Positions 3,001 through 58,589 of a stretch of 64,000 nucleotides of DNA are shown piece by piece. Every line of letters begins with the position of its first letter. Position 1 is the stretch's first letter. The translations under genes and the position numbers were made by a program. This DNA comes from Candidatus Staskawiczbacteria bacterium RIFOXYB1_FULL_38_37 (GTDB lineage: Bacteria; Patescibacteriota; Minisyncoccia; Minisyncoccales; Staskawiczbacteraceae), in contig MHPK01000001.1 of NCBI GenBank assembly GCA_001822075.1, positions 22,757 to 86,756 of the forward strand, read 5' to 3'. Under the pieces are notes generated by a model. The model saw only the letters and a list, made by a program, of their open reading frames with translations, was not told the DNA's origin and did not search any database.

Positions 3001-6000
3001 AAACTAATGTCGGCGCATTGGGAGCGGTGTTTGCGGGAGCTCCCCCGCTGTAAACTCCAATTATACCTGTGCCGTAAGAAGAATTGCCTGTGTCCTGATA
3101 GCCAGCCACAAAATTCGTGGTGTCAAGGGCCGCAACAGAAACATAGGCAGTAGAAGCTGAATTAAACGCAGCCTCATCTTCATAAGTAATGTCTGTTCCA
3201 GATATTGTGCCAGCTAAAGCTGTGCCATAAGAAGAGTTGCCTGTGTCTTGATAACCAGCTATAAAATGGGTGGAGTCAAGAGCTGAAACAGAAACATAGG
3301 CGGTAGCAGCTGAATTAAACGGATAGGCAGCGCCATAGGTTATTGTGGTTCCAGATACAGAGCCGATTGCAGCTGTGCCATATGTGTTTGAATCTGTATA
3401 TCCTACCACAAAGCTGGTGGCGCTGAGCTTGGTAAAAGAAATATAGGCCTGAACATCTAACGCAATCATATCTTTCTCTGTGCCATAGCTTATTGTTGTT
3501 CCATCTACTGTGCCGATTCTACTTCTGCCATAGGTGGCAAAAAACCCAAACACAAAACTGGTAGAGCTAAGAGCCGCGACAGAAACATAGGTAACTACTC
3601 CTGTACTAAATGTGGACTGAGTGCCATAACCAGTTATTGTTGTTCCAGATACAACTCCAACTATAGCATATCCCCTATTAGTTGCTGGAGGAACATTACT
3701 TTTGCACAAAACCACAAAATGTGTTGAGTCAAGGGCCGCGACAGAAATAGAAATAGAATTAGCATTAGTTACGGTGTTGAATACACTCTCTGCGCCATAA
3801 GAAGATATTGTTGTTCCAGATACTTCTCCAACTATAGCTGTGCCTACATCAGAGTTGCCTACATCTGAATAAGCAGCCACAAAATGGGTGGAGTCAAGAG
3901 CCGCGACAGAAATATAAGTAGTAGCAGCTGAGTTAAACGCAACCGGGGTGCCGTAACTTATTGTTGTTCCAGATATAGAGCCAACTACAGCTGTGCCATA
4001 TCCGGTTGAATCCCTGTATGCTATCACAAAACTTGTGGAAGTAAGCATGGCAGTAGAAACATAGGTGGTGGAAGCTGATGCGAATGCATTCTCAGCGCCG
4101 TAAGCTATATTGCTTGGGTCAACTATCCAATCAATATCAATGTCACCGCTTATAATCTTTAAGTCAAAAATGTCTGTGGGTGTTCCGAGATTAGTAAGCA
4201 AAATTCCATACATTCCCTCGTGATCTATGCTTTCAAAAGTTGCAACAAGCCCGCCTTGCGTCTGGTTGCCATCTTGGTCTTCATAAATAGGATACACTTC
4301 TATTGTTGCTGGCTGGCCTGGATTTGTTGGTTTAGCATAAATTGTATTGTCTTTTGTATTGTCTAATATTTGCTCAAAAGTAGCTCTAACATAGTGTCCA
4401 TTTGGAACTGTTGCCCATTGATTGTCTTGCGCCACTGTAAGGTCATAAATGTCAGCTACTATTTGCTGGTTTTCATCCATTTCAAATGCTTTGGAAATAA
4501 ATATGATTTCAAATATCTGTTCTGATAAGTGAGGCACTGTCCACTCCACATAATCTAACTTTCCGTTGTTATTGAGGTCAAATGCGTGGAATTCCATTTC
4601 AGCATAGCCATTATCCCGACAGGCTTCTGCCTGTCGTGGATCCTCGACTGCTTCGCAGTCGGGATTTTGCCACTTAATTTTGATTTTGCTTTCCTGTCCT
4701 ACTTTGTAAATTTCTGGAATTGTTGTGTAGGCTAATACATTTGTGATTGGTGGCTGGTCTGGCTGTTCTTCTGCTGAAATTGTAACCAGCTTTCCTTTGT
4801 CTGTTTCTTGTTCTGTGATTTCTGGCGCTGGGGTCTCGTAATCTACTTCAACATATTCTTCGGTTTCTTCTGATTGCTCTATTTCTACAACTTCCTGGTC
4901 TGTTGGAGTCGTTGTTTCAGTTAGTAATTCTCCTGGAAGCTGGATTATTTCCTGGTTAGAAAGAGACACAGGTTCTATGACTGGTATTTCTGGAAGCTCT
5001 GAAATGGCTTCTTGTTCTGACTCATCAATTTCTTCTTGCCGTTCGGATTCTGATTCTACAAACTCCTCTTCAATTGGCTCCTCGCCCGCCTGATTGTCCG
5101 CAGGACTTTCGGCGGGCTCGCCTAACTCAATATCCCCGCCTGAAGCTGCTGCATCATTGCGGGCAGGTTCAGAACTTTGGGCAGGTTCTTCTTCTGCAAT
5201 TTGTTCTTGGGGTTGCTCAGGTTCCTCGCCCGCCTGATTGTCCGCAGGGCTTTCGGCGGGTTGTTGAACTTCTGGTTCAGGCTCTTCTGCTGGAAGCGCT
5301 TCTGAAACATCAACAAACACAGCTTCATTTGTTTCTATAATTTCAGGCTGGGATTCTGCTATACTTTCTGTAATCTGGGCAACTGCGTTTTCTGCGGCTC
5401 CATGGACATCAGCGAGAAAAAATCTGTACACTTTAGACAAAAAATTCTTTGGCTCTGTTTTTGTAAGCTGTTTGCGCTCTTCTGCGGCAAACTGGAACTG
5501 GGAGGTTTCAGCCGAATAGTTTGCTATTGCCAAAGCTTCCTGCTTTGTAATTGATTTTACCTTGATATTCTGGGCGTTTTTCGGAAGCTGGACTAAGTTT
5601 GCGCCGGCTGTAATATCTGATTTTTTAATCACAGCTGACCATTTTACTGTTTGCCCCACAACAGCTGGCGAGGTTTGCTTTGTTAAAGCTGTTTTAATAA
5701 TCTGGCTTTGGCTTATCCGGGGTTTTGGCGAAACAAACCAGGCTGCGGTGAATAAAATACAAAGAGTTAACACAAAAACAGCTATTCCCTGCGCAACACA
5801 AAACGGCCTGAAAGACATATAAAAATTTTTGCCCCGCAGAATATAGGCCTGTTTTTTGATTTTATCTTTTAGAACAGCCAAGAGAGCAGTTGAGCGCTTT
5901 GAAAAGCGCAATTTAATCAACTTAATTTTTCTTTTTATTCTTCTTTTCCAGTATCTTAGGCAATATTTGAAAATCTTTTTTTGAGGCGCCAAAAATTCCC

Positions 6001-6851: not shown

Positions 6852-8285
6852 ATGGATAAGTTCAATTTTTTAGCAAAAAATAAGTTAGACAACCTCCCGA
6901 AAACCAGCGGAGTATATTTGTTTTACGCCAAAAACAATAAAACGCCTATTTATATTGGCAAAGCAATAAGCATTAAAAATAGAGTAAAAAACCATTTTCA
7001 GGGAAAAAATTGGTGGGAGAAAACCCTCCTTCGCCAAGCCTGCCTGCCGGCAAGGCAGGGCTTCGGCGGGCAAGTTGGCTATTTTGAAACAAATTCTGAA
7101 ATTGAAGCATTAATTTTGGAAGCTAATTTAATCAAAAAATACCAGCCCAAATATAATGTAATGTGGCGGGACGATAAAAATTATTTTTATGTTGCCATCG
7201 CAAAAAATGAAAATGAAATTCCCTATGTGTTTATCACCCACCAGAAAAATCAAAAAAAGACTGAATACGTGGGTCCCTTCACAGAAGGCACGGCTCTTAA
7301 AAAAACTTTACGATTTTTAAGGCGAGCATTCCCCTATTATTCGATAAAAAAACATTCAAAATTAAAATGCGCATACTGCCATTTAGATTTATGTCCTGGT
7401 CCTTACGAACAATTGTTTGCGCCTCGCCTTGGCGGGCTCGGCGCGCCAAATGCGTTTGGCGAATACAAAAAAAATATCAAAAAATTAATTTTGATATTAA
7501 AAGGGAAAAGAAAAACTGTTTTAAATTCTCTTAGAAAAGAAATGAAACAGCTGGCAAAAAATAGAGAATTTGAAAAAGCCGGAAAAATCAGGGACGAAAT
7601 TTATGCTTTGCAGCAAGTTATGCAACATACTCATGTAATCAGCGGAAACGAAATCAGCGGAAACGAATATGACGAGTTTTTGCCGTACGGCAAAAACTCG
7701 TATTCACCCGGTTTTAAAACCCTGCAAAAAATTGTAGGAATAAAAAATGATATTAACAGAATAGAATGTTATGATGTTTCAAATATACAAGGAAAACAAG
7801 CCACGGGCTCTATGATTGTTTTTATAAACGGCAAACCGGACAAAAATCAGTACAGAAAATTCAGAATTAAAATGGAAAATGAGCCAAATGACATTGCAAT
7901 GTTAAAAGAAACAATCAGCAGGCGCTTGCAACATTCAGAATGGCCGTATCCTGAAATAATGCTTATTGATGGCGGAAAAGGCCAATTAAATGCCGCTATC
8001 GCGGCAAAATCCGAAATCCTAAATCCGAAATCCGAAACACCTGCCCGCATCGGCTGCGCCGAAGGCGTTGCAGGCGGGAATTCAAAATTCGAAATTCAAA
8101 ACATAAAAGTCGTATCCATTGCAAAAGGCGGGCAGGAGCTGTTTATTGAAGGCAAAAATAAACCCATTCCGCTTAAAAGTTTACCGCAGGAAATTTATAA
8201 TCTGATTTTGCAGTTAGACAGCGAAGCTCATCGGTTTGCAATAAGTTATCATAAAAATTTAAGAAAAAAGAACTTAATGCCTTAA
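6852..8285 (+). CDS. uvrC: Excinuclease ABC subunit C (short form, carrying repeat-derived insertions)
   Basis: N-terminal GIY-YIG motifs (SGVYLFY...PIYIGKA...RVKNHF) and a UVR motif (REFEKAGKIRDEIYALQ). C-terminal nuclease-half motif IECYDVSNIQG. No terminal (HhH)2 is evident. Confidence 0.85.
   Translation: MDKFNFLAKNKLDNLPKTSGVYLFYAKNNKTPIYIGKAISIKNRVKNHFQGKNWWEKTLLRQACLPARQGFGGQVGYFETNSEIEALILEANLIKKYQPKYNVMWRDDKNYFYVAIAKNENEIPYVFITHQKNQKKTEYVGPFTEGTALKKTLRFLRRAFPYYSIKKHSKLKCAYCHLDLCPGPYEQLFAPRLGGLGAPNAFGEYKKNIKKLILILKGKRKTVLNSLRKEMKQLAKNREFEKAGKIRDEIYALQQVMQHTHVISGNEISGNEYDEFLPYGKNSYSPGFKTLQKIVGIKNDINRIECYDVSNIQGKQATGSMIVFINGKPDKNQYRKFRIKMENEPNDIAMLKETISRRLQHSEWPYPEIMLIDGGKGQLNAAIAAKSEILNPKSETPARIGCAEGVAGGNSKFEIQNIKVVSIAKGGQELFIEGKNKPIPLKSLPQEIYNLILQLDSEAHRFAISYHKNLRKKNLMP
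7039..7074 (+). repeat. GC-rich composite element in frame in uvrC (palindrome cctgcctgccggcaaggcagg + ggcttcggcgggcaag)
   Basis: Translates as CLPARQGFGGQV within otherwise AT-rich uvrC. The palindrome recurs at 39662-39681 and the 16-mer recurs (reverse complement) at 45882-45897. Confidence 0.8.
8006..8102 (+). repeat. Composite insertion in uvrC: (aaatccga)x4, a GC-rich core, then (gaaattc/aaaattc) array
   Basis: aaaatccgaaatcctaaatccgaaatccgaaacacctgcccgcatcggctgcgccgaaggcgttgcaggcgggaattcaaaattcgaaattcaaaac. It stays in frame (KSEILNPKSETPARIGCAEGVAGGNSKFEIQN). Confidence 0.8.
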
Positions 8286-10952: not shown

Positions 10953-11605
10953 TGGAATTTGATTTAACAAAATTAACTCCTGATGTTCGCAAATTAAGCG
11001 ACATGAAAAATGTTATTTATGACAAAAAATGGCTTAAGACAGCCGATAATGTTGAATTATATTATATGTACCGGGGATTGGAAGAAATGGACGGATTAAG
11101 ATATGATGTTACATTAATTCCGGCAAAAATGCTTGGCTCAGAATTTGTTAAAACAAAGGGCCACTATCATATAGGCGATTGGCAGGAAATTTATACGGTT
11201 ATAAAAGGCCAAGCCATATATTTAATGCAAAAGAAAAACAATAAAGAAAAAATCAAAGACGTTTATTTTGTAAAAGCCAAAAAAGGAGAATCAATAATAA
11301 TTCCTTCGGGCTACGGGCATGTCACAATAAACCCGTCAGAAACCCAAGAATTAAAAATAGGCAACTGGATTTCAGAAGATTGCGAAAGCGACTATTCTGA
11401 TTTTGAAAGACTTCAGGGAGCATGCTATTACTATGCTAAAAAGGGCCCCGCCTCCGCTAAGGCTTCCGCCTCCGATGAATCTTCGGCGGGACAAGTCGGC
11501 GAGGCAAAGTGGATAAAAAATGAAAATTACAAAGATATCCCTCCTCTGCGGGAAGAAAAACCTTTAAAATCTATACCTCAAAATTTAGATTTTTTAAGGC
11601 AATAA
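10952..11605 (+). CDS. Cupin-type (archaeal-type) glucose-6-phosphate isomerase-like protein
   Basis: Cupin metal motif TKGHYH...E(I)Y...G...PSGYGHVTINP resembles cPGI. The C-terminal part carries a GC-rich in-frame insertion. Confidence 0.55.
   Translation: MEFDLTKLTPDVRKLSDMKNVIYDKKWLKTADNVELYYMYRGLEEMDGLRYDVTLIPAKMLGSEFVKTKGHYHIGDWQEIYTVIKGQAIYLMQKKNNKEKIKDVYFVKAKKGESIIIPSGYGHVTINPSETQELKIGNWISEDCESDYSDFERLQGACYYYAKKGPASAKASASDESSAGQVGEAKWIKNENYKDIPPLREEKPLKSIPQNLDFLRQ
11444..11505 (+). repeat. GC-rich element in frame in the PGI-like gene
   Basis: ggccccgcctccgctaaggcttccgcctccgatgaatcttcggcgggacaagtcggcgaggc translates as GPASAKASASDESSAGQVGEA. It is homologous to the ruvA element at 45877-45911 (reverse complement). 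Confidence 0.8.
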
Positions 11606-13436: not shown

Positions 13437-13459
13437 CGGAGTCCCGGACTCCGTTTTTT
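13437..13459 (+). terminator. 17-nt perfect palindrome cggagtcCcggactccg + T-run. Serves as the rnj terminator and as copy 1 of the RAYT-flanking palindrome
   Basis: Lies 13 nt after the rnj stop and 19 nt beyond the RAYT stop. The central base is inverted relative to copies 2 and 3. Confidence 0.75.
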
Positions 13460-13471
13460 ACCGTTTTTTAA

Positions 13472-14182
13472 TTACTCTAATAAAATTGCCTGATGCTGAC
13501 TTAACTTTCTTTTATATTCAATCCAATTCTCAATTGCCTCCTTACATCCAACTACTCCATTCAATGTTTCTGATAAAAATTTCCTTTCTGTAACCGATGG
13601 AAAATTATTTTCACCAATATAATCGCTATAACTCGACCATTTATAATCTTCTAAAAAACTTACCGCCTTATCTAAATTATCAATTCCATTTTCTTTCCAT
13701 CCTGGTTCAATTAAAGATATAGGATTTACATGGATATAATTAAAAATTGTTCTTAATTGATTATCGTCTCCGATAGGAACAGAACGGAATCTATTTTGAA
13801 AAACATAACCTTTGCGTTTATATTTTCTGTTAAAATATCCAGCATAACCCGAACCCGATTTATTCATAAACTTAACTATTCCGCCATTTTTTACCTGCTT
13901 TAACAATAAATGAATGTGATTTGGCATAAAACAAAATGCCAATATATCCACTAGTTTTTCCCTTTTATCAACCACGGAGTCCGGGACTCCGCTGGTTTTT
14001 TCACGCTTCCTTTCCTCCCTTCTTTTTCTAATTTCTATGTGCTTGGCATTATTGAACTCGTAGATAGAAAAAATGCCACGATAATAATCGTTTATATCTT
14101 TAAAAATTAAACTGTCATCTAATCCGCGTATAATAATATGATAAATTTCGTCGTTGGTGAATTGTTCTTTTCTTTGTGGCAT
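13472..14182 (-). CDS. IS200/IS605-like Y1 (HUH) transposase, RAYT-like
   Basis: HUH motif in FCFMPNHIHLLL and a catalytic-Tyr region FNYIHVNPI. The N-terminus MPQRKEQFTNDEIYHIIIRG is typical of COG1943 proteins. No second IS gene (tnpB) is present. Confidence 0.8.
   Translation of the reverse strand: MPQRKEQFTNDEIYHIIIRGLDDSLIFKDINDYYRGIFSIYEFNNAKHIEIRKRREERKREKTSGVPDSVVDKREKLVDILAFCFMPNHIHLLLKQVKNGGIVKFMNKSGSGYAGYFNRKYKRKGYVFQNRFRSVPIGDDNQLRTIFNYIHVNPISLIEPGWKENGIDNLDKAVSFLEDYKWSSYSDYIGENNFPSVTERKFLSETLNGVVGCKEAIENWIEYKRKLSQHQAILLE
13975..13991. repeat. Copy 2 of palindrome cggagtccgggactccg, inside the RAYT ORF (in frame, ...TSGVPDSV...)
   Basis: Exact 17-mer. The extended match caaccacggagtccgggactccgctgg compares with caactgcggagtccgggactccgcttg at 14227-14253. 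Confidence 0.85.
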
Positions 14183-14232
14183 ATTTCTATTATAGCAAAA
14201 AATCATAAAAAGTGGCCAACCACGGTCAACTG

Positions 14233-14249
14233 CGGAGTCCGGGACTCCG
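14233..14249. repeat. Copy 3 of palindrome cggagtccgggactccg, 51 nt upstream of the RAYT start
   Basis: Exact 17-mer read from the sequence. Confidence 0.85.
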
Positions 14250-14414
14250 CTTGCTTCTATTTAATTTGTAAAAAAGAAGCCGGCTGAGATTTCTCGTGAG
14301 AGATTTCTCAATCGGCTTTTTGGTAGGCGCAGAGCAGATGCTTCCCCATCTTTACACTCACCCATGTAGGCGTGAGCTTAAACGAAAAAAGGGTGCTTTA
14401 CTTCTGTTGCGCCA

Positions 14415-19141: not shown

Positions 19142-19175
19142 AAAAACAGCCCCGCCAAGGCGGGGTTGTTTTTGA
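19142..19175 (-). terminator. Rho-independent terminator after the phosphohexomutase gene
   Basis: ccccgcc-aa-ggcgggg stem flanked by A-run/T-run (caaaaacagccccgccaaggcggggttgttttt). Confidence 0.7.
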
Positions 19176-21687: not shown

Positions 21688-21766
21688 CGAAATCCGAAGC
21701 GCGAAATCCGAAATCCGAAATAAATTCAAAACGTTTCGAATTTCGAAATTCGAATTTCGAATTTCT
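21688..21766. repeat. Inverted array: (cgaaatc)n, spacer, (cgaattt)n, starting immediately after the ssb stop
   Basis: cgaaatccgaagcgcgaaatccgaaatccgaaataaattcaaaacgtttcgaatttcgaaattcgaatttcgaatttc. Confidence 0.8.
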
Positions 21767-27236: not shown

Positions 27237-27275
27237 TAAAAAAATGGGCGTTCGCGACAAAAAGTCGGAACGCCC
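27237..27275 (-). terminator. Terminator of the PEP-CTERM gene
   Basis: gggcgttc(g)cgac-aaaaa-gtcggaacgccc preceded on the plus strand by an A-run (a T-run on the minus strand). The architecture resembles the rpsR terminator. Confidence 0.7.
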
Positions 27276-27305
27276 CTGACGAACCAAGCTTGAAAGCTTA
27301 GATGT

Positions 27306-28076
27306 CTATTTGCGGCGGAGGTAAGCCGCCAAACTGGTCAAAAGACCGATTGCCATCAACACGAAGGTTGACGGCTCAGGCACGGGCTCGGCGTATTCCG
27401 CGCCCATCGCTCGCGCCTCCTCAATCGTCGGCGCGATGAAACGGCCATACATGGTGTATTGGGCCGTCCAAGTCGGGGTCGAAGTGATGACTGGCGGATT
27501 TTCGTAACCGTCCGGGTACACCCAGTGGTCCTCCGTGCCTTCCATGTACATGAGGTCCGAGCCAAATAAGTCGCTAGGGTTGATGTTAAAATAACCATCC
27601 ACAGACATAGTCTGTGTTTTGGCATCGTCTGAACTGGATGGCCCAGATGCAACACCCAACCCGCCGCCGTAATTCGGATACTCATAACAATTGAAGTTCA
27701 GGCCGGCATTGATATCCAGCCCATCTTCAGAAACCGACTGGTGCCAATTCTGGCTTTGTGGACAATCCTCCGAAACTTCCCGCAAGCCTCGCACATAGCA
27801 TCTCGCGGTCCAGTAACTCGTGTCATACCAGTTGGTATAAAAGCTCCAACTAGCCGATTCGAAGCTATACAGCGCAGGGTCCAGCAAAATGTTGAAAGAC
27901 CCCCGCACACTGCCATCAGCTTCGTAAGAGTAAGAATTCCACTGGGGCATACCCGTACTCAGCGAGAAATAGCCACTTAATTGGTTCCCTCTGTCCTCGC
28001 TGATGGGTCCTCCTGCGCCGAAGGCCGAGCCAACAACGCACAAAACAACACAAATTGCCGAAATCATACCCTTCAT
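27306..28076 (-). CDS. Secreted PEP-CTERM-anchored protein (256 aa) in a GC-rich islet
   Basis: Start moved to MKGMISAICVVLCVVGSAFGAG (signal peptide), with AAGGAG upstream. The C-terminus VPEPSTFVLMAIGLLTSLAAYLRRK has the PEP motif, a TM helix and a basic tail. The many shadow ORFs in other frames reflect high G+C. Confidence 0.75.
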   Translation of the reverse strand: MKGMISAICVVLCVVGSAFGAGGPISEDRGNQLSGYFSLSTGMPQWNSYSYEADGSVRGSFNILLDPALYSFESASWSFYTNWYDTSYWTARCYVRGLREVSEDCPQSQNWHQSVSEDGLDINAGLNFNCYEYPNYGGGLGVASGPSSSDDAKTQTMSVDGYFNINPSDLFGSDLMYMEGTEDHWVYPDGYENPPVITSTPTWTAQYTMYGRFIAPTIEEARAMGAEYAEPVPEPSTFVLMAIGLLTSLAAYLRRK

Positions 28077-28295
28077 CTCAACTCTCCTTGTCTTTTGGAC
28101 CTTTTTGGTCCGGTTCAAGAAAAACAGAACCGTACATTCCTTACGCAAAACGCTTGTTCGAGCTTCAAAATATACCTCCTTTCTTGTATTTGAAGCTCTA
28201 ATTTTCAATGTTCACCTATATCCTTATCATATCATATTTAAGGCACCTTGTCAAGTATTCAAATTGTATGTTAATATGATAGTATAATAAAAGGC

Positions 28296-34176: not shown

Positions 34177-35901
34177 CTATTTAAAATATTTTAATAATTC
34201 TTCAACTGGCAGGGTGTTTATAATATCTGATTTTTCTGCCCATCCGCGGCGCGCCATTGAAACCCCGTATTCCATTAAATTTAATTGTTCTTTCTGGTGC
34301 GAGTCAGTATTTATTATCATTTTTATTCCTTGATTTTTAGCGCGCCTTATATATAAATCGCGCAAATCCAATCTGTCGGGAGAGGAATTAATTTCTAAAA
34401 TAGTCCCAGTTTCTTTTGCGACTTCTAAAATCTTATCAAAATCTAATTGATACTCGTCTCTTTTTCCAATGAGCCTGCCTGTCGGATGAGAAATAATATC
34501 TATATTAGGATTTCTCATTGCTTTTATCAGCCTTTGAGTCATTTCCTGCTTTGGCATTTTTAAACTTGAATGCGCGCCGGCAATCACATAATCTAATTTC
34601 TCCAAAACATCGTCTTTAATATCAACGTTTCCGTCGTTCATTATATTTGCCTCGCAGCCGTGCAGTATTCTGAATTTGGAATTTTGAATTTGGAATTTTG
34701 AATTTAATTTTTCTATTTCTTTATGTTGGTCTAATAATTGTTTTTCATTTAATCCATGTTCAATGCGTAAAAATTTTGTATGGTCTGAAATACCGATATA
34801 TTCATAGCCTGCATCTATGGCTGATTTTGCCATTTGCTCAATTGAATTTTCTCCGCCGTCCCAATCTGAATGACAGTGCAAATCTCCCTTAATATCTTTT
34901 AATTCAATAATTTTTGGCAATTCTCCTTTTAAAGCTGCTTCAATTTCTCCTTCATTTTCTCTTAATTCCGGCTCAATATATGGCAAGCCAATAGCCTTAT
35001 AGACATCTTCTTCTGTTTTTCCTGCAATTTGTTTTTTGTCCCTGAATACCCCGTACTCTGAAAGCTTCAACCCCTTATTAATAGCAATACGTCTTGTTGC
35101 CACATTGTGGTCTTTGTTTCCTGTAAAATATTGTAAAGCTGACCCATAGCTTTTTTGAGGCACAATTCTTATATCAATATCAAACCCCTCTTTTATTCTT
35201 ACAGATGATTTTGTCGGTCCTTTTGCCCAAACTTTTTCAACTCCGTCTAATTTAACAAAAAAATCCATAACTTTTTTTGGATTTTCTGAAACGGCCAAAA
35301 TATCAACGTCGCCAATTGTTTCTTTTCTTCTTCTCACAGAGCCCGCCAAACTGATTTTTTCAACTTCTTTTAAGTTTTTTAATTTTTCAACAACATTTCT
35401 TGCCGCCGGCAAAATCTTTCCCAATAGAAACCTTCCCTTGTCCCTTTTCAAAAACTCCAAACCCTGTAAAATATTCTTTTCTGTTTTTTCGCCAAACCCG
35501 AAAAGCGGAGCTATTTTATGGGCTTTGGCTGCTTTTTCTAAATCTTTTAAATTTTTAACTCCTAATTTTTGATAAAGAACTTTAGCCTTTCTGGCTCCCA
35601 TGCCCTCAACTCTTACTAAGCCATCTAAATCAATAGGCAATTTCTTTTTCTGCGCCTCATAATGTTTTATTCTCCCTGTTTTTAAATATTCTTCTATATG
35701 GTCCGCAATCGCCTTGCCTACGCCAGGTATCTCCATTAAAGCTTTTACTCCGCCTTTTTTGTAAATATCTCCCACATACTCTGAAAGCGACTCTAAAGAC
35801 ATGGCAGCTCTTTCATACGCATAAGGCTTAAAGGCCACTCTTTCCATTCTAAGAAATCTTGCCATATCATTAAAAATTTTAGCTATCTCCTGATTCCTCA
35901 T
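34177..35901 (-). CDS. polX: Family X DNA polymerase with C-terminal PHP domain (PolX)
   Basis: HhH motifs (GVGKAIADHI, GMGARKAKVLY), the NT core GSVRRRKETIGDVDIL and the PHP motif DLHCHSDWDGG...HP. Confidence 0.9.
   Translation of the reverse strand: MRNQEIAKIFNDMARFLRMERVAFKPYAYERAAMSLESLSEYVGDIYKKGGVKALMEIPGVGKAIADHIEEYLKTGRIKHYEAQKKKLPIDLDGLVRVEGMGARKAKVLYQKLGVKNLKDLEKAAKAHKIAPLFGFGEKTEKNILQGLEFLKRDKGRFLLGKILPAARNVVEKLKNLKEVEKISLAGSVRRRKETIGDVDILAVSENPKKVMDFFVKLDGVEKVWAKGPTKSSVRIKEGFDIDIRIVPQKSYGSALQYFTGNKDHNVATRRIAINKGLKLSEYGVFRDKKQIAGKTEEDVYKAIGLPYIEPELRENEGEIEAALKGELPKIIELKDIKGDLHCHSDWDGGENSIEQMAKSAIDAGYEYIGISDHTKFLRIEHGLNEKQLLDQHKEIEKLNSKFQIQNSKFRILHGCEANIMNDGNVDIKDDVLEKLDYVIAGAHSSLKMPKQEMTQRLIKAMRNPNIDIISHPTGRLIGKRDEYQLDFDKILEVAKETGTILEINSSPDRLDLRDLYIRRAKNQGIKMIINTDSHQKEQLNLMEYGVSMARRGWAEKSDIINTLPVEELLKYFK
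34669..34705. repeat. AT-rich 7/8-nt tandem array (gaatttg gaattttg)x2.3, in frame in polX
   Basis: tctgaatttggaattttgaatttggaattttgaattt translates on the minus strand as KFQIQNSKFRI within the PHP domain region. Confidence 0.8.
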
Positions 35902-39313: not shown

Positions 39314-39484
39314 TAAAAACAGCCCCGCATTAGCGGAGCCGTTTTTAGTGAGGAGGAGCATAATTTTCAACGACGTCTGCATATTTCCCGGGCCCAAACT
39401 CGGACAATGAATTTAGGTATATACTTGGCGCTTGTTTCGCTAAAAACTATTCTGTCCTTGAGAATAAATCTCTCACCTCCTCAT
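39314..39484 (-). ncRNA. Candidate structured RNA or 5' leader (~170 nt) bounded by a promoter and an intrinsic terminator
   Basis: Promoter TTGACA-N16-TAAAAT at 39491-39518. An 8-bp long-range helix pairs UGAGGAGG (5' end) with CCUCCUCA (3' part). The terminator cggcuccgc-uaau-gcggggcug + U-run lies at 39314-39341. The region is more G+C-rich than other spacers and holds no convincing ORF. Confidence 0.35.
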
Positions 39485-39604: not shown

Positions 39605-40585
39605 TTATTTATTTATTCTTGAAACTCTTGTAAATCCAGAGCACGTTACAATTTCAATTCCCCTGCCTGCCGGCAGGCAGGTTGCCTTTTCAAGTTCGTC
39701 CATCAATAAATTTACGCCCAAAGAATCAGACGAAATGTGGCCTGCAATTACAATATTTATGTGCGAGGCCTCTGCCTCTTTTTTATGCTCTTCTGAAATG
39801 TGCATGCCAACTACTGTTCCGATGCCTGCCTGCGCCATTTTTTCATAAAGCTTTGGCGATCCTTCAGTTCCTCCTGTAATTTCAGCCATTGATATTTTAC
39901 CACAGCGGTTGTCAGCAGAGCCCACAAAAATTTTAGGGCCGACTCCGATTTTCATTGCCTCTTTATATTCTGGAATTTCTTTTAATATGCTTATTAAGTC
40001 AGAAACTCTTTCAACTTCTTTGCCTTCAATTAAATCTTTTAAAAATTTAGCAGCTAAATTGTCGCAGGGAGTGTGCGAGTTCATTAAGTTAACTTTCATT
40101 AATCTGGCGGCGTCAACTGTTCTGTTGTGGTTTGAACTGTTTACCCCTCGAGCAACTTCTGAAATTCTTTCTCTCATCAATCCCTCTGAAATGTTGATTG
40201 GCACTCCGTAATAAGCTAAAACATCGCACTGCAAATCCATAACATCAGCCAATTGCGCCAAACCCTTGCCCACAGGATGATGGGCAATTACCAAATCAAT
40301 ATCTCCTAATTGCTTTGCCATTAAAATTTCTTCGGGGCCTATGTCAATGCCAACCAAAACTTTTTTAATATCTTTATCGTCTGAAATATTATAAACTCCT
40401 GAATCCAAATACGGATTTTCTAAAGCATCTTTATCAAAGTCTTCTTTTTCTATTTCTGAAAGCTTTTCAAATTTATCTTTTTTCCTATCTAAAAATTTTC
40501 GCACTCCGTCTGCGCCCCTGAAATCAGCTTCCGTGCCCATTTTTATCATTAAATTGTAAATATCTTGTATTCGCATAATTTTCAA
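39605..40585 (-). CDS. NIF3/YbgI-family (DUF34) dinuclear-metal protein, long form
   Basis: The DLVIAHHPVG and IAGHISSDSLG motifs resemble NIF3 metal-binding His clusters. A C-terminal GC-rich palindrome is inserted in frame. Confidence 0.55.
   Translation of the reverse strand: MKIMRIQDIYNLMIKMGTEADFRGADGVRKFLDRKKDKFEKLSEIEKEDFDKDALENPYLDSGVYNISDDKDIKKVLVGIDIGPEEILMAKQLGDIDLVIAHHPVGKGLAQLADVMDLQCDVLAYYGVPINISEGLMRERISEVARGVNSSNHNRTVDAARLMKVNLMNSHTPCDNLAAKFLKDLIEGKEVERVSDLISILKEIPEYKEAMKIGVGPKIFVGSADNRCGKISMAEITGGTEGSPKLYEKMAQAGIGTVVGMHISEEHKKEAEASHINIVIAGHISSDSLGVNLLMDELEKATCLPAGRGIEIVTCSGFTRVSRINK
39662..39681. repeat. Perfect 20-nt palindrome cctgcctgccggcaggcagg, in frame in the NIF3-like gene
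   Basis: Translates (minus strand) as ...CLPAGRG.... Same family as 7039-7059 in uvrC. Confidence 0.85.
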
Positions 40586-40587
40586 TT

Positions 40588-40743
40588 TTAAATTTTCAAT
40601 TTTAAATGTTTGTTATTTAAAATTTTATCGTATAGCTGGCCAATCATTTCTTTTTGCTTTTTTGAATCCAAAAACTGCCGCCTTATGCGGGCTTTTTCTG
40701 TGCGTATAAATTTTCTGGTTGATTTTGGCATTTTTTTGTTCAT
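40588..40743 (-). CDS. Possible small basic protein (51 aa), below the ORF-track cutoff
   Basis: ATG at 40743. Sequence MNKKMPKSTRKFIRTEKARIRRQFLDSKKQKEMIGQLYDKILNNKHLKLKI, ending 3 nt before the NIF3 start. No motif. Confidence 0.3.
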   Translation of the reverse strand: MNKKMPKSTRKFIRTEKARIRRQFLDSKKQKEMIGQLYDKILNNKHLKLKI

Positions 40744-43087: not shown

Positions 43088-44671
43088 TTATCTACCGAAA
43101 AGGCGGGATAGCCAGCTTTTTTTGGGTTCTTTCTGCTGTTCGTTTTTTTCTTGCTCCCTATCAAAAGGTTTATCTTCAACATTTTCATTTTCAAGCCTTA
43201 GTTTTATAACGAGTCTTTTTTCCTTAAACTGGGGCGGGCTTTGCCTCTCTTCACTATAATTGTGCACATCTTCGGCATTTCTGCTTCTTCTATTAATAAA
43301 CCACTGCTCTTCAACGTCGGTTGCAAAAAATCGGCTGTTCCTCGGAAGCAAAAATTCACTCTCCCTAGACGCTGCCTCTTTAAAGTTTATGATTGAAGGT
43401 ATCCAAACTCCTCTTTCTCCTCTCGGAACAGTTATTTCATATAAAATTTGATTTTCGCTTCTCTGAAGAAAATCATTTATAACCAAGTTCCTACTTGTGG
43501 AAGTGCTCATGTATCCTTTATCTAGCGAAATATTTTTACCAATTAACGCCCGGGCTTCCTCAATAGGCATATTTCCGGAAATTGCCCTGTAGGCAGTAAA
43601 CTCAACCGGTGTTTTGGGACAATTCGCCATGGTTTTATCCAAGGTTTCTATAATTGAGCCAATATTTGCCCTGTCTTCCTCTGTCGCCCTTTCCGGCAGT
43701 TCTTTTCCTCTCAAAAAATGATTCACCGGCTTACTCCATTCCTGATATTTTTTTATGTTTTTTAAATCATTTAAATCAATAGACTTACCCCATTCATAAT
43801 AATATCTGCTTAATACATTCCACACCTTTCCTGTTTCATATGTTTGCTCTAATTCAAATTTTAAGCCTGCTATTTCTTCAGTTTTTCTTTCCTCGCTCTC
43901 ACCTGCATTTAATGTATTATCAGTTTTAGAAACTGATTCTAGGCCAGAATAATCGGGCTTATCGGTAAAAAATCTTTTTCGCACTTCTTTATCTGGCATA
44001 GAATATAATTTTTGCCAATCGCTTATTCTGTCCAAATCAACTTTCGAGGCATATTCGTAGCCCCTAAAATGGTGTGTATCGCGTTCTCTGGCTTTTACCA
44101 GTGGCCTTCTTTTTTCACTAACTTCTTGAATGCCTAATTCGCCCTCTGTAAATTTATCTGTAATTTTCCTTATTTCTTTTTTTGTTGTTTTTGTCCTTTC
44201 AATAACTTGGCTTTTTACAGATCGATCAATTTTAGGCTCTCCCTTTGGAAAAAAAATAGAAGTGCCGTCTTCTTTTTGAGTTGCTTCAAATAATAAACGG
44301 CGGCCTAGCCACCCAAAAAATTCATCTGTGTTTCTTTCTGAATGATCAGACCTAAAATGAGAACGATAAAAATGGCTCATTTCTTCTCCAAGAGTCGAAC
44401 CTTCTGCTATTTGATTGACGTCTTTAATTTTAATAACGTCTACTTCTTCACCTAGAAGATTCTCGTTCTTTTCTCCAAAAGTAGGGTCTAACCCAGAACC
44501 CTTTACTACCCTCGGCAATTCATCTGACTGAACCGAAAGTCCATATTTTTTATCAAAAACTTTATTTGCATATTTAACAAAACCTTGAACTTTTTCAAAA
44601 TCCTCTCGTTCCTTAACCGCCCCTGTTTTTTCTTGCAGTTCTTTATCTGATAAATCTTCTGGATTAAACAT
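43088..44671 (-). CDS. 527-aa protein with C-terminal R-S-E mono-ADP-ribosyltransferase domain
   Basis: NAD-fold landmarks occur in canonical order. These are VNHFLRG (the IN..LR-like helix), FTAYR(~362)AIS, GYMS(389)TS(391)TS, and the E(437)SE(439)FLLP ExE motif. The N-terminal ~330 aa are unassigned and there is no signal peptide. Confidence 0.75.
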   Translation of the reverse strand: MFNPEDLSDKELQEKTGAVKEREDFEKVQGFVKYANKVFDKKYGLSVQSDELPRVVKGSGLDPTFGEKNENLLGEEVDVIKIKDVNQIAEGSTLGEEMSHFYRSHFRSDHSERNTDEFFGWLGRRLLFEATQKEDGTSIFFPKGEPKIDRSVKSQVIERTKTTKKEIRKITDKFTEGELGIQEVSEKRRPLVKARERDTHHFRGYEYASKVDLDRISDWQKLYSMPDKEVRKRFFTDKPDYSGLESVSKTDNTLNAGESEERKTEEIAGLKFELEQTYETGKVWNVLSRYYYEWGKSIDLNDLKNIKKYQEWSKPVNHFLRGKELPERATEEDRANIGSIIETLDKTMANCPKTPVEFTAYRAISGNMPIEEARALIGKNISLDKGYMSTSTSRNLVINDFLQRSENQILYEITVPRGERGVWIPSIINFKEAASRESEFLLPRNSRFFATDVEEQWFINRRSRNAEDVHNYSEERQSPPQFKEKRLVIKLRLENENVEDKPFDREQEKNEQQKEPKKSWLSRLFGR

Positions 44672-44731
44672 AATTTATCTGCCTAGATTTTTTAAAGCAA
44701 GTTTTATGCGCTATTCTGGTCTTTGTGATTA

Positions 44732-45034
44732 TTAACAAAAATTAACTTCCAGCTGGCAATTCAATGCTTCGGCAATTTTTTCTAAAGTATCTATTGAAAA
44801 ATTTTGCTGGCCAGACTCTATCCTGGCAATATTACTTTGTTTAGTTCCAATTTTTTTAGCCAATTGCGCTTGCGATAATTTTTTCTTTTTTCTCAATTTC
44901 AAAATCTGATAAGCAATTTCAAGTTGCCTGCCATACTCGTCATAATATTTTTTGAATTCAGGATTTCTCAATTCCTTTTTTAGTATTTCTTGAAAATCAG
45001 TTGCTTTTTTTATTTTTTGTGTTTTTTTATTCAT
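44732..45034 (-). CDS. XRE-family HTH protein (HigA-like antitoxin/regulator)
   Basis: KKLSQAQLAKKIGTKQSNIARIESGQQNFSIDTLEKIAEAL is a canonical HTH_3. Overlaps the upstream toxin-like ORF by 8 nt. Confidence 0.8.
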   Translation of the reverse strand: MNKKTQKIKKATDFQEILKKELRNPEFKKYYDEYGRQLEIAYQILKLRKKKKLSQAQLAKKIGTKQSNIARIESGQQNFSIDTLEKIAEALNCQLEVNFC

Positions 45035-45401
45035 ATAATTTTGGATTATTTATAACATCAATATAATTTTCTTCAGCAATTTTTATTTCTTTCACGGGAG
45101 TTTTTTGTGTTTTCTTTAAAAATGCATGGAGTAAAACTATATTTTTATTTATAAAAGTGAAATAAAATATTCTATATCTTTTGCTTGAAAAAACAATTCT
45201 TAATTCTCTAATTTTATCTTTTATGTGTCTTGAATATGGTTCATCTAAAACACCTCTGTTTGTTCTTAAAACTTCAATGTATTTATAAACCTTTGTTCTT
45301 TCTTTAATATTTAAATTATCGATATATTTTTCAATGAGGCTTCCATTATTTTTTGAATTTCTATAAAATTTTACTTTGTATTCTTTATTATTATATATCA
45401 T
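45027..45401 (-). CDS. Gp49/HigB-type RelE-superfamily toxin-like protein
   Basis: The ...IRELRIVFSSKRYRIFYFTFINKNIVLLHAFLKKTQKTP pattern is typical of phage Gp49-like/DUF891 HigB toxins. The toxin-first gene order matches higBA. Confidence 0.7.
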   Translation of the reverse strand: MIYNNKEYKVKFYRNSKNNGSLIEKYIDNLNIKERTKVYKYIEVLRTNRGVLDEPYSRHIKDKIRELRIVFSSKRYRIFYFTFINKNIVLLHAFLKKTQKTPVKEIKIAEENYIDVINNPKLYE

Positions 45402-45437: not shown

Positions 45438-46025
45438 TTATTTCCCCAGATTTTTTAACGCAAGTTTTATACGTTCCTCTGTATTTTTAATATTAGAAGC
45501 AATGTGGCTTAAAGCTTCTTTTGCCTGCTGTTTTGAAAATCCAAGCTGGACTAATGCATTTTCCGCCTCGTCCGCCGACGATGATTTTTGCCCTAGTTGT
45601 TTTATTTTTCCTGTAAGCTCTAAAATTATTGTCATTGCTCTTTTAGATCCAATGCCGGGAATGCCCGCAAAAACATTTTCGTCTTGTTTCAAAATTTTGT
45701 CTTTTATTTTTTCCAAAGGTCCGACAACGGAAATTTCTAAAGCGGCTTTTGGCCCTATGCCCCTTATATCATTTAATATCTCAAAAAATTCCAGCTCCTC
45801 ATAAGTTAAAAACCCGTACAGGTCTGACTTGTCTTCTCTTATATCATGGTATATAAAGAATTTTACAGGAGCAATTTGGGGCTTGCCCGCCGAAGCCTCG
45901 GCGGAGGCGGGTAATTTTAATAAGGTTTGGCGGGATAAAAAAACTTTGTAGCCAATTCCGGCCACTTCTATAATAACAAACTTATCTTTTTTTAATATAA
46001 CTTTACCTTCTAAAAATGATATCAT
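45438..46025 (-). CDS. ruvA: Holliday junction helicase subunit RuvA
   Basis: MISFLEGKV...VIIEVAGIGYKVFLS OB domain and HhH motifs (IRGIGPKAALEI, IPGIGSKRAMTIILEL). Confidence 0.9.
   Translation of the reverse strand: MISFLEGKVILKKDKFVIIEVAGIGYKVFLSRQTLLKLPASAEASAGKPQIAPVKFFIYHDIREDKSDLYGFLTYEELEFFEILNDIRGIGPKAALEISVVGPLEKIKDKILKQDENVFAGIPGIGSKRAMTIILELTGKIKQLGQKSSSADEAENALVQLGFSKQQAKEALSHIASNIKNTEERIKLALKNLGK
45877..45911. repeat. GC-rich hairpin element in frame in ruvA
   Basis: ggggcttgcccgccgaagcctcggcggaggcggg reads on the minus strand as PASAEASAGKPQ. It contains the hairpin ccgccga-ggct-tcggcgg. Confidence 0.85.
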
Positions 46026-52990: not shown

Positions 52991-55021
<2,031 letters not shown>

Positions 55022-57671: not shown

Positions 57672-58589
57672 TCAAATAAACATATTAAAATACCAGCTTA
57701 TTATCTGCTGGCCCCAAAACATTGCCATAAATGTGCCTATGATTAAAAATGGGCCGAAAGGTATTTCGCTTTTTAATTTTTTTTCACGCAAGACAATCAG
57801 TATTATGCTTATTATAGCGCCAAAAAAGAATGCTAAAAACAGAGCGGCCAAAACATTGTTAACTCCAAGCAATAAACCCATTAAAACAGCCAGCTTTACA
57901 TCGCCAAACCCCATCCAGCGTCCCTTGGAAATAAGAAAAATTACCAAGAAAAAACCCGAAGCAATGATGGCGGCGAGCAAATAACCGCCAAAAATCCGAA
58001 ATCCGAAATCCGAAATCCGAAACAAATTTAAATTTTCAAAATCCAAAATTCCAAATTCAAAAATGCGATAAACTGCTGTTATACCTATTGCAGGGAACAA
58101 AACTTTGTCGGGAATAATATAATGCTTTAAATCATACACAAAAATTATAATTAAAGAGCTGGCAACATAAAACCAAAAGGCCAAATTTATGAAATTTAAA
58201 ATTTGGATTTCATTTAAAATTTGAAATTTAAAATTTAAAATTAACAAAAATATCGCACCCGTTGCTAATTCAACTGCAGGATACTGCCATGATATTTTTT
58301 TTCTGCAATATCTGCATTTTGCTTTAAAAAACATAAAGCTAAAAACCGGAACCAAATCAGTCCAGCTTAAAGTATGCTTGCAATTAGGGCAAAAGCTTCT
58401 GCCACGCAGTTTCTTTATTAAACTTTGCCTCCCCGACAAAAGCGCTTCGCGCATTTTGACGGGCCCGTCAGAATGTCCCGCATTAGCGGGACTTTCGTCG
58501 GGCAGTCTATAAATAACGCAGTTCAAAAAACTGCCAATACACAGCCCCAAACCAAAAATAAAAATATAAGCTAAAAACCCTAAAATCAT
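57672..58589 (-). CDS. pilD: Prepilin peptidase (A24 family) with three repeat-derived in-frame insertions
   Basis: CPNC...CRYC zinc cluster and a polytopic membrane body. Catalytic-region motifs include GFGDVKLAVLMG and the FGPFLIIG segment. Confidence 0.85.
   Translation of the reverse strand: MILGFLAYIFIFGLGLCIGSFLNCVIYRLPDESPANAGHSDGPVKMREALLSGRQSLIKKLRGRSFCPNCKHTLSWTDLVPVFSFMFFKAKCRYCRKKISWQYPAVELATGAIFLLILNFKFQILNEIQILNFINLAFWFYVASSLIIIFVYDLKHYIIPDKVLFPAIGITAVYRIFEFGILDFENLNLFRISDFGFRIFGGYLLAAIIASGFFLVIFLISKGRWMGFGDVKLAVLMGLLLGVNNVLAALFLAFFFGAIISIILIVLREKKLKSEIPFGPFLIIGTFMAMFWGQQIISWYFNMFI
57990..58065. repeat. (aaatccga)x4 followed by aaattt/aaaatcc/aaattcc/aaattca array, in frame in pilD
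   Basis: aaaaatccgaaatccgaaatccgaaatccgaaacaaatttaaattttcaaaatccaaaattccaaattcaaaaatg reads on the minus strand as IFEFGILDFENLNLFRISDFGFRIF. Confidence 0.85.
58183..58245. repeat. AT-rich 7-8-nt array (aaatttN) in frame in pilD
   Basis: aaatttatgaaatttaaaatttggatttcatttaaaatttgaaatttaaaatttaaaattaac reads on the minus strand as LILNFKFQILNEIQILNFINL. Confidence 0.8.
58428..58505. repeat. GC-rich multi-hairpin insertion in frame in pilD
   Basis: Contains gcgc-ttc-gcgc, gacgggcccgtc and gtcccgc-atta-gcgggac. Translates as DESPANAGHSDGPVKMREALLSGRQS, immediately before the CPNC motif. Confidence 0.8.

Follow-up and report, generated by a model that had tools for sequence, protein, structure and literature searches.

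In a 64,000-nt stretch of the genome of Candidatus Staskawiczbacteria bacterium RIFOXYB1_FULL_38_37 (contig MHPK01000001.1; the whole stretch, with a GC content of 37%, is hereafter called the window), the genes for RuvA and for a short UvrC have in common a GC-rich segment, which we identify here as part of a discrete 30-nt unit, named E, that recurs inside unrelated genes of unrelated bacteria. In our judgement, E is probably a dispersed, non-autonomous repeat, behaving like a selfish element of the repetitive extragenic palindromic (REP) type. An initial annotation of the window had seen in the segment a mobile DNA family colonising coding DNA, and this proposal is borne out by several observations. 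Namely, the units are discrete, orthologous sites that lack them exist, nearly identical copies occupy non-homologous sites in different species, and E and a second unit, B, can each be found in one and missing from the other of two proteins whose identity is 90% or more.

Element E and its insertion into genes

The genes had been correctly named as ruvA, uvrC and a gene for a cupin-type glucose-6-phosphate isomerase (PGI-like). The 16-mer GGCTTCGGCGGGCAAG, which makes up the 3' half of E, has exactly two matches in the window, at 7059-7074 on the plus strand (uvrC) and at 45882-45897 on the minus strand (ruvA), and a real resemblance, CCCGCCTCCGCTAAGGCTTC ... TCTTCGGCGGGACAAG, is found at 11447-11495 in the PGI-like gene. 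Could GC-rich patches coding for low-complexity stretches of Ala, Ser and Gly simply have come to share a 16-mer by chance? The segments are indeed of low complexity and rich in GCC and GGC, and 4 of 100 whole-window shuffles contained at least two matches to the 16-mer when up to three mismatches were permitted. However, when the null models were confined to GC islands, of which there are 125 outside the gene of a giant surface protein, with 300 runs per model, a shared word of 16 nt or longer arose in no run with mononucleotide shuffling, in one run with a Markov-2 model and in two with a Markov-3 model. What is more, the third codon positions are G or C despite the 37% GC of the genome, and the full 30-mer recurs, with sharp boundaries, on at least 120 unrelated contigs. 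The exact 16-mer common to uvrC and ruvA is therefore not a product of low-complexity composition alone, and the probability that we attach to coincidence is negligible.

Copies of E beyond the window were collected with the exact 22-mer CGCCAAGGCTTCGGCGGGCAAG, which was picked so that the window's own loci do not match it. It matched at least 120 metagenome contigs with GC contents from 0.33 to 0.71, and 123 copies were aligned (in what follows, L-numbers denote DNA loci or contigs of relatives or E-bearing contigs, and P-numbers homologous proteins). The consensus is CCCGCCT[T/A/C]CGCCAAGGCTTCGGCGGGCAAG, GC-rich and 30 nt long, followed by C in 67% of copies; with a length of 30 nt, or of 31 nt in about two thirds of the 123 copies, it lies within the 20-40 bp range of REPs. 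The 5' edge is sharp, in that position -8 is C in 121 of the 123 copies while position -9 is random, and the flanks are unrelated. Judged by proteins encoded on the same contigs (exact sequence or 90%-identity clusters), the hosts include Candidatus Paceibacterota, Candidatus Udaeobacter and further Verrucomicrobiota, Gemmatimonadales, with E inside an open reading frame (ORF) of 777 aa, and a Bradyrhizobium-like contig, so that, among the matches listed, the near-identical 30-mer is found in at least four phyla. Host genes recognized by Pfam are those of LeuRS, ValRS, CysRS, PPDK, a cysteine desulfurase and a PMT-type glycosyltransferase; ThyA (thymidylate synthase) is named from the source annotation, and for IleRS and a DnaE-type polymerase the identification was made only by eye. 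In AT-rich contigs, the copies lie mostly within genes, 6 of 51 looking intergenic. Two to three E copies each are found in L004, L015 and L106, and the window holds three E, two B and one C, where B and C are further units described below. Carriage by phages or plasmids was rejected, E being almost absent from IMG/VR (one contig) and from PLSDB (partial, chance-level matches only).

The ruvA copy of E represents a clean insertion of 30 nt, and the loop that received it is disordered. The empty orthologous site reads AAATTA/CCAGAAATTGG and the filled site AAATTA(CCCGCCTCCGC..GGCGGGCAAG)CCAGAAA, with the inserted unit between TTA and CCA; the window and L004 have exactly 30 extra bases here, whereas L005 has 36. 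Outgroup RuvA proteins and most Staskawiczbacteria orthologues have LPEIGxxIK and no insert, the common state among 120 Staskawiczbacteria RuvA proteins being LKLPEIGxxIKLF in a protein of about 186 aa, and at this loop the window RuvA exceeds solved RuvA structures by about 9 residues. In the AlphaFold (AF2) model of RuvA, whose mean predicted local distance difference test score (pLDDT) is 79.6, residues 41-50 are coil with pLDDT below 50, between a helix at 32-37 and a strand at 54-62. The expectation that insertion sites fall in surface loops thus holds for this copy, and as a general rule it may hold for others. An assembly or adapter artefact was rejected, since the copy is in frame, is common to independent assemblies (exactly the same protein occurs in independent Rifle aquifer Staskawiczbacteria assemblies at JGI, NCBI and ENA) and has diverged together with its host in orthologues. 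In particular, one RuvA clade (marker ...FIYHDI) carries LPASAEASAGKPQIAP or diverged versions of it, among them AFAPEELRQGKP and ASPAKRGEP, and its DNA remains alignable while the peptide is altered by compensated single-base indels (GCTTCGGCGGGCAAG versus GCTTCGGCAGGGCAAG; ASAGKP versus ELRQGKP). It follows that the ruvA copy is old, vertically inherited and decaying, and that the insert is not constrained as a peptide.

The same RuvA loop (45882-45911 in the window) bears unrelated inserts in P0014, P0038, P0056 and P0094. One type, NPVRN…ISNGV, has ends that back-translate, by inspection, to an inverted repeat (AACCCCGTTAGAAAT / ATTTCTAACGGGGTT), and another type is SRLGRGSSIPSESGL. The presence of such inserts in other lineages makes the loop a tolerant hot spot and a repeated landing site.

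The uvrC copy of E appears, from sequence comparison, to be older than a second unit, B, that splits it. Namely, the two E halves are contiguous in the relative L034 (CCCTCCTTCGCCAAG/GCTTCAACGGGCAAG), and B of the window is a clean 21-nt insertion at the slash, which together with the bases that it splits adds the residues ACLPARQ to UvrC. This nested B is found only in the window and in P0122, and not in L034, P0123 or P0125. In L035, a 30-nt unit lies near the same centre of the uvrC copy and is identical at 29 of 30 positions to the ruvA insert of the window, so that nearly the same E occupies non-homologous sites in different species. B also stands alone, as a 20-mer, in a NIF3-like gene of the window, at L004 7703, in L090 and in L126. 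The third unit, C, is a 39-nt GC hairpin in the endonuclease domain of UvrC, flanked by AT-rich heptamer repeats (about 8007-8039 and 8079-8102), and the stretch of UvrC with C and the heptamers is about 29 aa longer than the same part of T. maritima UvrC. A copy of C identical at 38 of 39 positions lies at a different position of UvrC (about aa 51) in L036/P0136, where the host proteins are only 59% identical. More generally, UvrC orthologues range from 410 to 523 aa and have lineage-specific short inserts in about 30 alignment blocks, which belong to a few recurring peptide families.

Recent gain or loss of E and B is seen in PPDK. Two PPDK proteins of one 90% cluster, P0616 and P0617, differ by exactly ten residues, LPAEALAKAG, and in L090 these correspond to an antisense 30-nt copy of E inside a TA/T codon, with no duplication; at a second site, P0617 has the B-type peptide VVPAGRQ (21 nt), which P0616 lacks. 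Such presence or absence between proteins at least 90% identical, which the initial annotation had proposed looking for, means that E and B move. No target-site duplication was seen at the ruvA, uvrC-B or PPDK sites. One could also imagine that the units arise de novo, when replication or repair switches templates locally or converts sequence from terminator-like or other hairpins, with no transposition. The nested insertions at the centres of existing elements would fit this, as would the resemblance of some in-gene hairpins to intergenic terminator hairpins, the direct tandem clusters of E, and the uvrC and ThyA cases, in which insertion is paired with loss of host sequence. However, a local template cannot yield one and the same 30-mer between unrelated flanks in four phyla, and in both ruvA and PPDK exactly 30 nt were added, so that de novo templating seems quite improbable to us.

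Reading frames, mechanism and mobilising enzyme

The copies had been described as always read in one element-relative frame, and this is incorrect. The uvrC codons GGC TTC GGC GGG CAA give GFGGQ and the ruvA codons GCT TCG GCG GGC AAG give ASAGK, the two being off by one base, while the PGI-like gene keeps the ruvA frame up to a 1-nt indel. Outside the window, in AT-rich contigs with a spanning ORF of at least 250 aa and at least twice the length of the next-longest, we could assign frames to 30 coding copies of E, which is read in three sense and two antisense frames: sense frame 2 (PAFAKASAGK) in 16 copies, sense frame 0 (RLRQGFGGQ) in 6, sense frame 1 (PPSPRLRRAS) in 1, antisense frame 0 (LARRSLGEGG) in 5 and antisense frame 2 (LPAEALAKAG) in 2, with none seen in antisense frame 1. 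The 16 of 30 copies in the PAFAKASAGK frame compare with about 5 expected (chi-square against uniform p = 2e-6, with a few sites orthologous and hence non-independent). Consequently, selection of a single permissive frame stands as a strong preference and falls as an exclusive rule: the preference for the blandest peptide is marked, not exclusive. Moreover, there are no stop codons in any of the six frames of E, B, C and the other hairpins, and as the units measure 30, 21 and 39 nt, a gene stays open wherever one of them is inserted. In other words, even usage of the frames, with stops, is not what is found; the frames are uneven and free of stops, even if none is exclusive.

The frame data also bear on two further alternatives. 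A linker peptide PA(S/F)AKASAGK could be under selection at the protein level in loops, having arisen by convergence or spread as a coding module; the ASAGK frame is indeed dominant (16/30 coding copies), and inserts do lie in a disordered loop. However, the same DNA is elsewhere read as LRQGFGGQ, PPSPRLRRAS, LARRSLGEGG or LPAEALAKAG and also occurs in probably intergenic DNA, its synonymous positions are identical in genomes of 33 to 71% GC, and in the ruvA clade it is alignable while the peptide has been changed by compensated frameshifts. We thus regard selection for a linker as very improbable. Equally, the units might not be translated at all, being bypassed or removed in the manner of yeast mitochondrial byp elements or of the T4 gene 60 hop, since GC-rich structured inserts in AT-rich genes superficially resemble the mitochondrial byps. 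Against this, the unit lengths are multiples of three, no frame contains a stop, the strong frame preference implies selection on the peptide, and no matching take-off and landing codons were seen by inspection, which makes bypass extremely improbable.

The hairpin core that had been proposed, CCGCCGA-GGCT-TCGGCGG, exists as a perfect 7-bp stem in the ruvA copy, owing to an A-to-G variant; the proposal does not extend to the consensus. Good hairpins are formed by the ruvA variant, B and C alone (fold z = -1.9, -2.25 and -1.7, respectively). Are E, B and C then perhaps kept as functional nucleic acids, be it to bind a protein, to pause or attenuate transcription, to stabilise mRNA by a hairpin or to signal recombination? 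The exact conservation of the 30-mer across phyla speaks for this, as do the good hairpins of B and C, the 12-15-mers that several in-gene hairpins share with terminator-like intergenic hairpins, and the in-frame hairpin that the transposase gene discussed below keeps at a conserved position. On the other side, the consensus E folds no better than shuffles, Rfam has no family for it (the window was searched in gathering mode and 16 E-bearing loci in E-value mode), insertion sites show no common gene or position, close relatives can do without a given copy, and old copies decay. On the whole, we deem a function as nucleic acid unlikely.

Returning to E as a dispersed selfish repeat, the most likely course of events is as follows. 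E inserts precisely, as a whole unit, and leaves no target-site duplication that can be seen; being 30 nt long and stop-free in six frames, it keeps the frame of a gene open. Copies would survive where the ten extra residues fall in a tolerant, disordered surface loop, as in RuvA and perhaps as a rule, and they would survive best in the frame that gives the bland PAFAKASAGK, the observed bias then reflecting selection. Old copies are inherited vertically and decay, by base changes and by indels that compensate one another, examples being the ruvA clade and a uvrC clade with the marker WWEK, and they act as landing pads, as for B in the centre of the uvrC copy and for another E near the centre of the L035 copy. 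The encoded peptides would serve no function themselves. Given that targets are not duplicated and that some insertions are nested at the centres of elements, E might be moved by an enzyme that handles single-stranded DNA and acts in trans, such as an HUH/Y1 transposase of the RAYT (REP-associated tyrosine transposase) or IS200 kind, although we consider this rather doubtful.

The genome does encode a predicted transposase of the HUH/Y1 type, flanked by a hairpin other than E. The predicted product of this RAYT-like gene scores 43 bits against Y1_Tnp, with a cut-off of 23, and 44.6 bits against NCBIfam REP_Tyr_transpos, below the cut-off of 80, and a search of PDB sequences gave no match for it. 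Its own hairpin flanks the gene in inverted orientation and recurs in frame within it, where it encodes TSGVPDSVV; the homologues in L012 (380-1330) and L010 (10480-11620) have the same three-hairpin layout, each with a species-specific hairpin, a homologue in L019 is likewise flanked by other, species-specific hairpins, and the one in L034 (700-1680) has an internal hairpin with no flanking one seen. All of the 120 closest homologues have a short peptide of the S/R-G-x-P-x-S type at the same position, which corresponds to a hairpin wherever the DNA was checked, varies between species and matches the flanking hairpins in the window, L012 and L010. This internal hairpin could be an autoregulatory or a recombination site. 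REP/RAYT-type biology thus exists in the lineage, for which we found no literature linking RAYT or REPIN (inverted REP doublets) with the candidate phyla radiation (CPR), but a link between the transposase and E is not thereby made. Indeed, E as the REP of the window RAYT was rejected, as the hairpins are different ones and none of 270 RAYT homologues has an internal peptide of the E or B type. E as a terminal inverted repeat of a larger transposon was also rejected, given that the one inverted pair 1.25 kb apart, in L084, encloses no transposase-like ORF.

That said, a number of observations weigh against E being a REP-type repeat. The consensus E has no significant hairpin (z = -0.5, with 54 of 200 shuffles folding as well, and a 6-bp outer stem around a 14-nt loop), and the consensus E and B contain no GTAG or CGTC tag or its complement; the flanking positions are random. 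Neither E nor B flanks any of the RAYT genes, whose flanking hairpins are unrelated to them and vary from species to species, unlike E; a RAYT homologue is nearby in only 1 of 120 E loci; and all-against-all clustering of ORFs from the 120 loci found only housekeeping families recurring beside E. The near-identity across phyla is unlike the usual species-specific REP families. Not all insertions are clean, either: the ancestral UvrC site reads PSYRDNLFIDKVDKIG, the WWEK clade has the E-like KNWWEKTLLRQGFGGQVG instead, in place of RDNLFIDKVDK and with a net gain of only 2 aa, so that the uvrC copy is a replacement, and in ThyA the net gain is 6 aa. Finally, the census is biased, as it is confined to exact 22-mer matches on 120 contigs, uses stop-to-stop ORFs with no gene calls, and includes some orthologous sites.

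A bolder reading of E, which we put forward only tentatively, is that it might be an active, horizontally spreading 30-nt unit, nearly identical in at least four phyla and moved by a widely conserved activity in trans, with no inverted repeats, duplication, REP tag or linked transposase. If true, it would be among the smallest mobile DNAs and a recurrent source of ten-residue loop insertions in essential proteins.

Related features in the window and on other contigs

The positions of the units and of the genes that carry them are collected in Table 1. The copy in the PGI-like gene is, to judge by its profile matches, a degenerate and internally expanded E, whose insertion is putative. Its halves match the seed profile weakly (E = 0.018 and 0.06), the 5' half has E = 0.31 with the 123-copy profile, and the copy is found where the Pfam GPI match (residues 12-171 of 217) ends. 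The core CTTCGGCGGG, at up to one mismatch, occurs 7 times in the window against 1.4 expected. The cores in the giant protein, TTTCGGCGGG at 5107-5116 and 5251-5260, lie in a duplicated stretch and had been listed as relatives of the element; only the CCCGCC...CTTTCGGCGGG termini are shared with it and the 123-copy profile misses them, and the two longer units there may possibly be related to E. The giant surface protein itself (2006 aa; 35-6055, minus strand) contains a 300-nt direct repeat, 1749-2048 and 2373-2672, of 100% identity, together with several periodic repeats of about 153 nt.

Table 1. Genes, repeat units and other features of the window
Feature	Position	Strand	Sequence or remark
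RuvA gene	45438-46025	minus	
Element E in ruvA, 30 nt	45882..45911	-	CCCGCCTCCGCCGAGGCTTCGGCGGGCAAG; encodes PASAEASAGK, RuvA residues 39-48
RuvA peptide stretch spanning insert			LPASAEASAGKPQIAPVK
Short UvrC gene	6852-8285	plus	
5' half of apparently older E copy in uvrC	7024..7038	+	CCCTCCTTCGCCAAG; read (T)LLRQ(A)
Element B, 21-nt palindrome	7039..7059	+	CCTGCCTGCCGGCAAGGCAGG; exact centre of uvrC E copy
3' half of uvrC E copy	7060..7074	+	GCTTCGGCGGGCAAG; read GFGGQ, frame unlike ruvA
UvrC peptide stretch spanning insert			LLRQACLPARQGFGGQVGYFETNSEIEALILEANLIK
Further GC-rich uvrC stretch	7414..7456	+	PRLGGLGAPNAFG; lineage-variable insertion block of UvrC alignment
Element C, 39-nt GC hairpin	8040..8078	+	PARIGCAEGVAGG; UvrC endonuclease domain
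Stand-alone element B	39662..39681		CCTGCCTGCCGGCAGGCAGG; inside NIF3-like gene 39605-40585 (-), peptide TCLPAGR
PGI-like gene (cupin-type glucose-6-phosphate isomerase)	10952-11605	plus	
Degenerate, internally expanded putative E copy	11447..11495	+	PASAKASASDESSAGQ; near C-terminus of PGI-like protein
Possible E-related unit, giant protein gene	5085..5116; second copy 5229-5260	-	CCCGCC-20 nt-GGCGGG; E termini, other core
RAYT-like Y1 transposase gene	13472..14206	-	Pfam Y1_Tnp E = 6e-11
Own hairpin of RAYT-like gene	13437-13453, 14232-14250; in frame 13975-13991		CGGAGTCCnGGACTCCG, also given as CGGAGTCCGGGACTCCG; flanks inverted
Two tandem GC hairpins, ligA	54482..54534	-	GGTGGGGTGTCGGACACCCCACC; in frame, adenylation domain
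AT-rich 7-8-nt tandem repeats	8007-8039, 8079-8102, 21690-21762, 57992-58062, 34667-34710, 40576-40622		

The tandem hairpins in ligA are another family of the same phenomenon, and here the encoded LigA exceeds that of E. coli by about 9 aa. The GC-rich uvrC stretch at 7414..7456 has the 12-mer CGCCTTGGCGGG in common with a terminator-like hairpin at 19144-19170. Two GC hairpins are also found in a prepilin peptidase gene (58457-58492), one of which shares a 15-mer or thereabouts (four overlapping 12-mers) with a terminator-like hairpin at 39322-39341. AT-rich tandem repeats of 7-8 nt, of the AAATCCG and AAATTCA types, flank C, occur between genes, and encode the SKFEIQN- and NPKSE-type peptides of UvrC orthologues. 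A recurrent insert family of the …ARSEATKQS…RNDR or …LPRRLRAPRNDG type, found in the LeuRS of L049 and in the UvrC orthologues P0163, P0190 and P0220, looks like a further widespread repeat in these genomes.

On other contigs, close neighbours of E are mostly direct tandems, with inverted pairs only in L015 and L079. Clearly periodic flanks accompany about 7% of E copies versus 1% of controls, and flanking heptamer arrays were rejected as a part of E, being present at a minority of copies. In the GC-rich contigs L106 (6250-7250), L038, L073, L081 and L112, E lies inside organism-specific heptamer arrays (GCACCGA, CCGTTCC), and the array of L106 is within a gene that by eye looks like a DnaE-type polymerase. 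Insertion of E into flanking palindromes showed no enrichment at offsets up to 3 nt and was rejected as a general rule, the cases at hand (uvrC, L035, L043, L069) being anecdotal.

Directly downstream of ruvA, 43088-45401 holds a gene for an ADP-ribosylating exotoxin-like protein (PF03496) that adjoins a Gp49/HTH toxin-antitoxin-like pair. The region 27246-28208, with a 300-aa ORF that has a PEP-CTERM motif, is markedly GC-rich, and its composition, at odds with a 37% GC genome, suggests recent foreign DNA.

Significance and relation to known systems

The existence of E explains odd GC-rich, low-complexity loops (…PAFAKASAGK…, …LRQGFGGQ…, …RRSLGEGG…, …LPAGRQ…) in proteins predicted from uncultivated bacteria, and masking them is advisable when sequences are aligned, phylogenies built or structures predicted. 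Even the most streamlined genomes, in which hardly any DNA lies between genes, still host selfish repeats, inside essential genes. The copies amount to a natural experiment in loop tolerance, showing where RuvA, UvrC, LigA and the aminoacyl-tRNA synthetases can accept a ten-residue insertion. What is more, phylogenetic profiling, in which the presence of E is set against gene content, offers an approach to the near-identity of the 30-mer across phyla.

The phenomenon is known in kind, though seldom seen, from intragenic REPs and from Rickettsia palindromic elements, and E is a new family. A literature search on the DNA strings and on six encoded peptides found no paper with either. REPs inserted in frame have been described in the uvrA, uvrB, dnaE2, DNA ligase and tRNA synthetase genes of cultured bacteria, REPs have been found inserted within other palindromes, and several species share some of the families (Di Nocera, De Gregorio and Rocco 2013, PMC3733652). 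Like the GTAG/CGTC intragenic REPs, E is short, being in the 20-40 bp range, GC-rich, dispersed and in frame within genes, and the bias towards uvrC, ruvA and ligA in the window is likewise reminiscent of them. Unlike them, E has no tag and no significant palindrome, flanks no RAYT gene, is mostly intragenic in AT-rich contigs and is near-identical as a 30-mer in at least four phyla. Neighbouring copies form direct tandems, in contrast to the inverted doublets of REPINs. With REP/RAYT systems and the Y1 systems of IS200/IS605, E has in common insertion with no target duplication and hairpin loops as targets, and the window even has a RAYT-like gene flanked by its own inverted hairpins; it differs in that no RAYT is flanked by E or B, and the NCBIfam score of the RAYT-like protein is under the cut-off. 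[quoted passage not shown]

Rickettsia palindromic elements, the classic example, are reportedly about 100-150 bp long, clearly palindromic and confined to Rickettsia (said to be described by Ogata et al. in 2000), and they are tolerated at the protein surface. E resembles them in being selfish and in frame in the genes of functional proteins (RuvA, UvrC, LigA, aminoacyl-tRNA synthetases, PPDK, ThyA) and in residing in a small AT-rich genome, and differs from them in its length of 30 nt and in its hosts, which are Patescibacteria, Verrucomicrobiota, Gemmatimonadota and Alphaproteobacteria. The GC clusters, or byp elements, of yeast mitochondria are also short, GC-rich mobile units in the coding DNA of very AT-rich genomes; they belong to organelles, in many cases disrupt the frame, and are either bypassed or located in tolerant regions, whereas E is bacterial, keeps the frame and, to judge from its sequence, appears to be translated. 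Set against the known pattern of in-frame repeats, what differs in E is the lack of a tag, the weak self-complementarity, the lack of linkage to a RAYT, the mostly intragenic location in the AT-rich contigs sampled and the near-identity across phyla.

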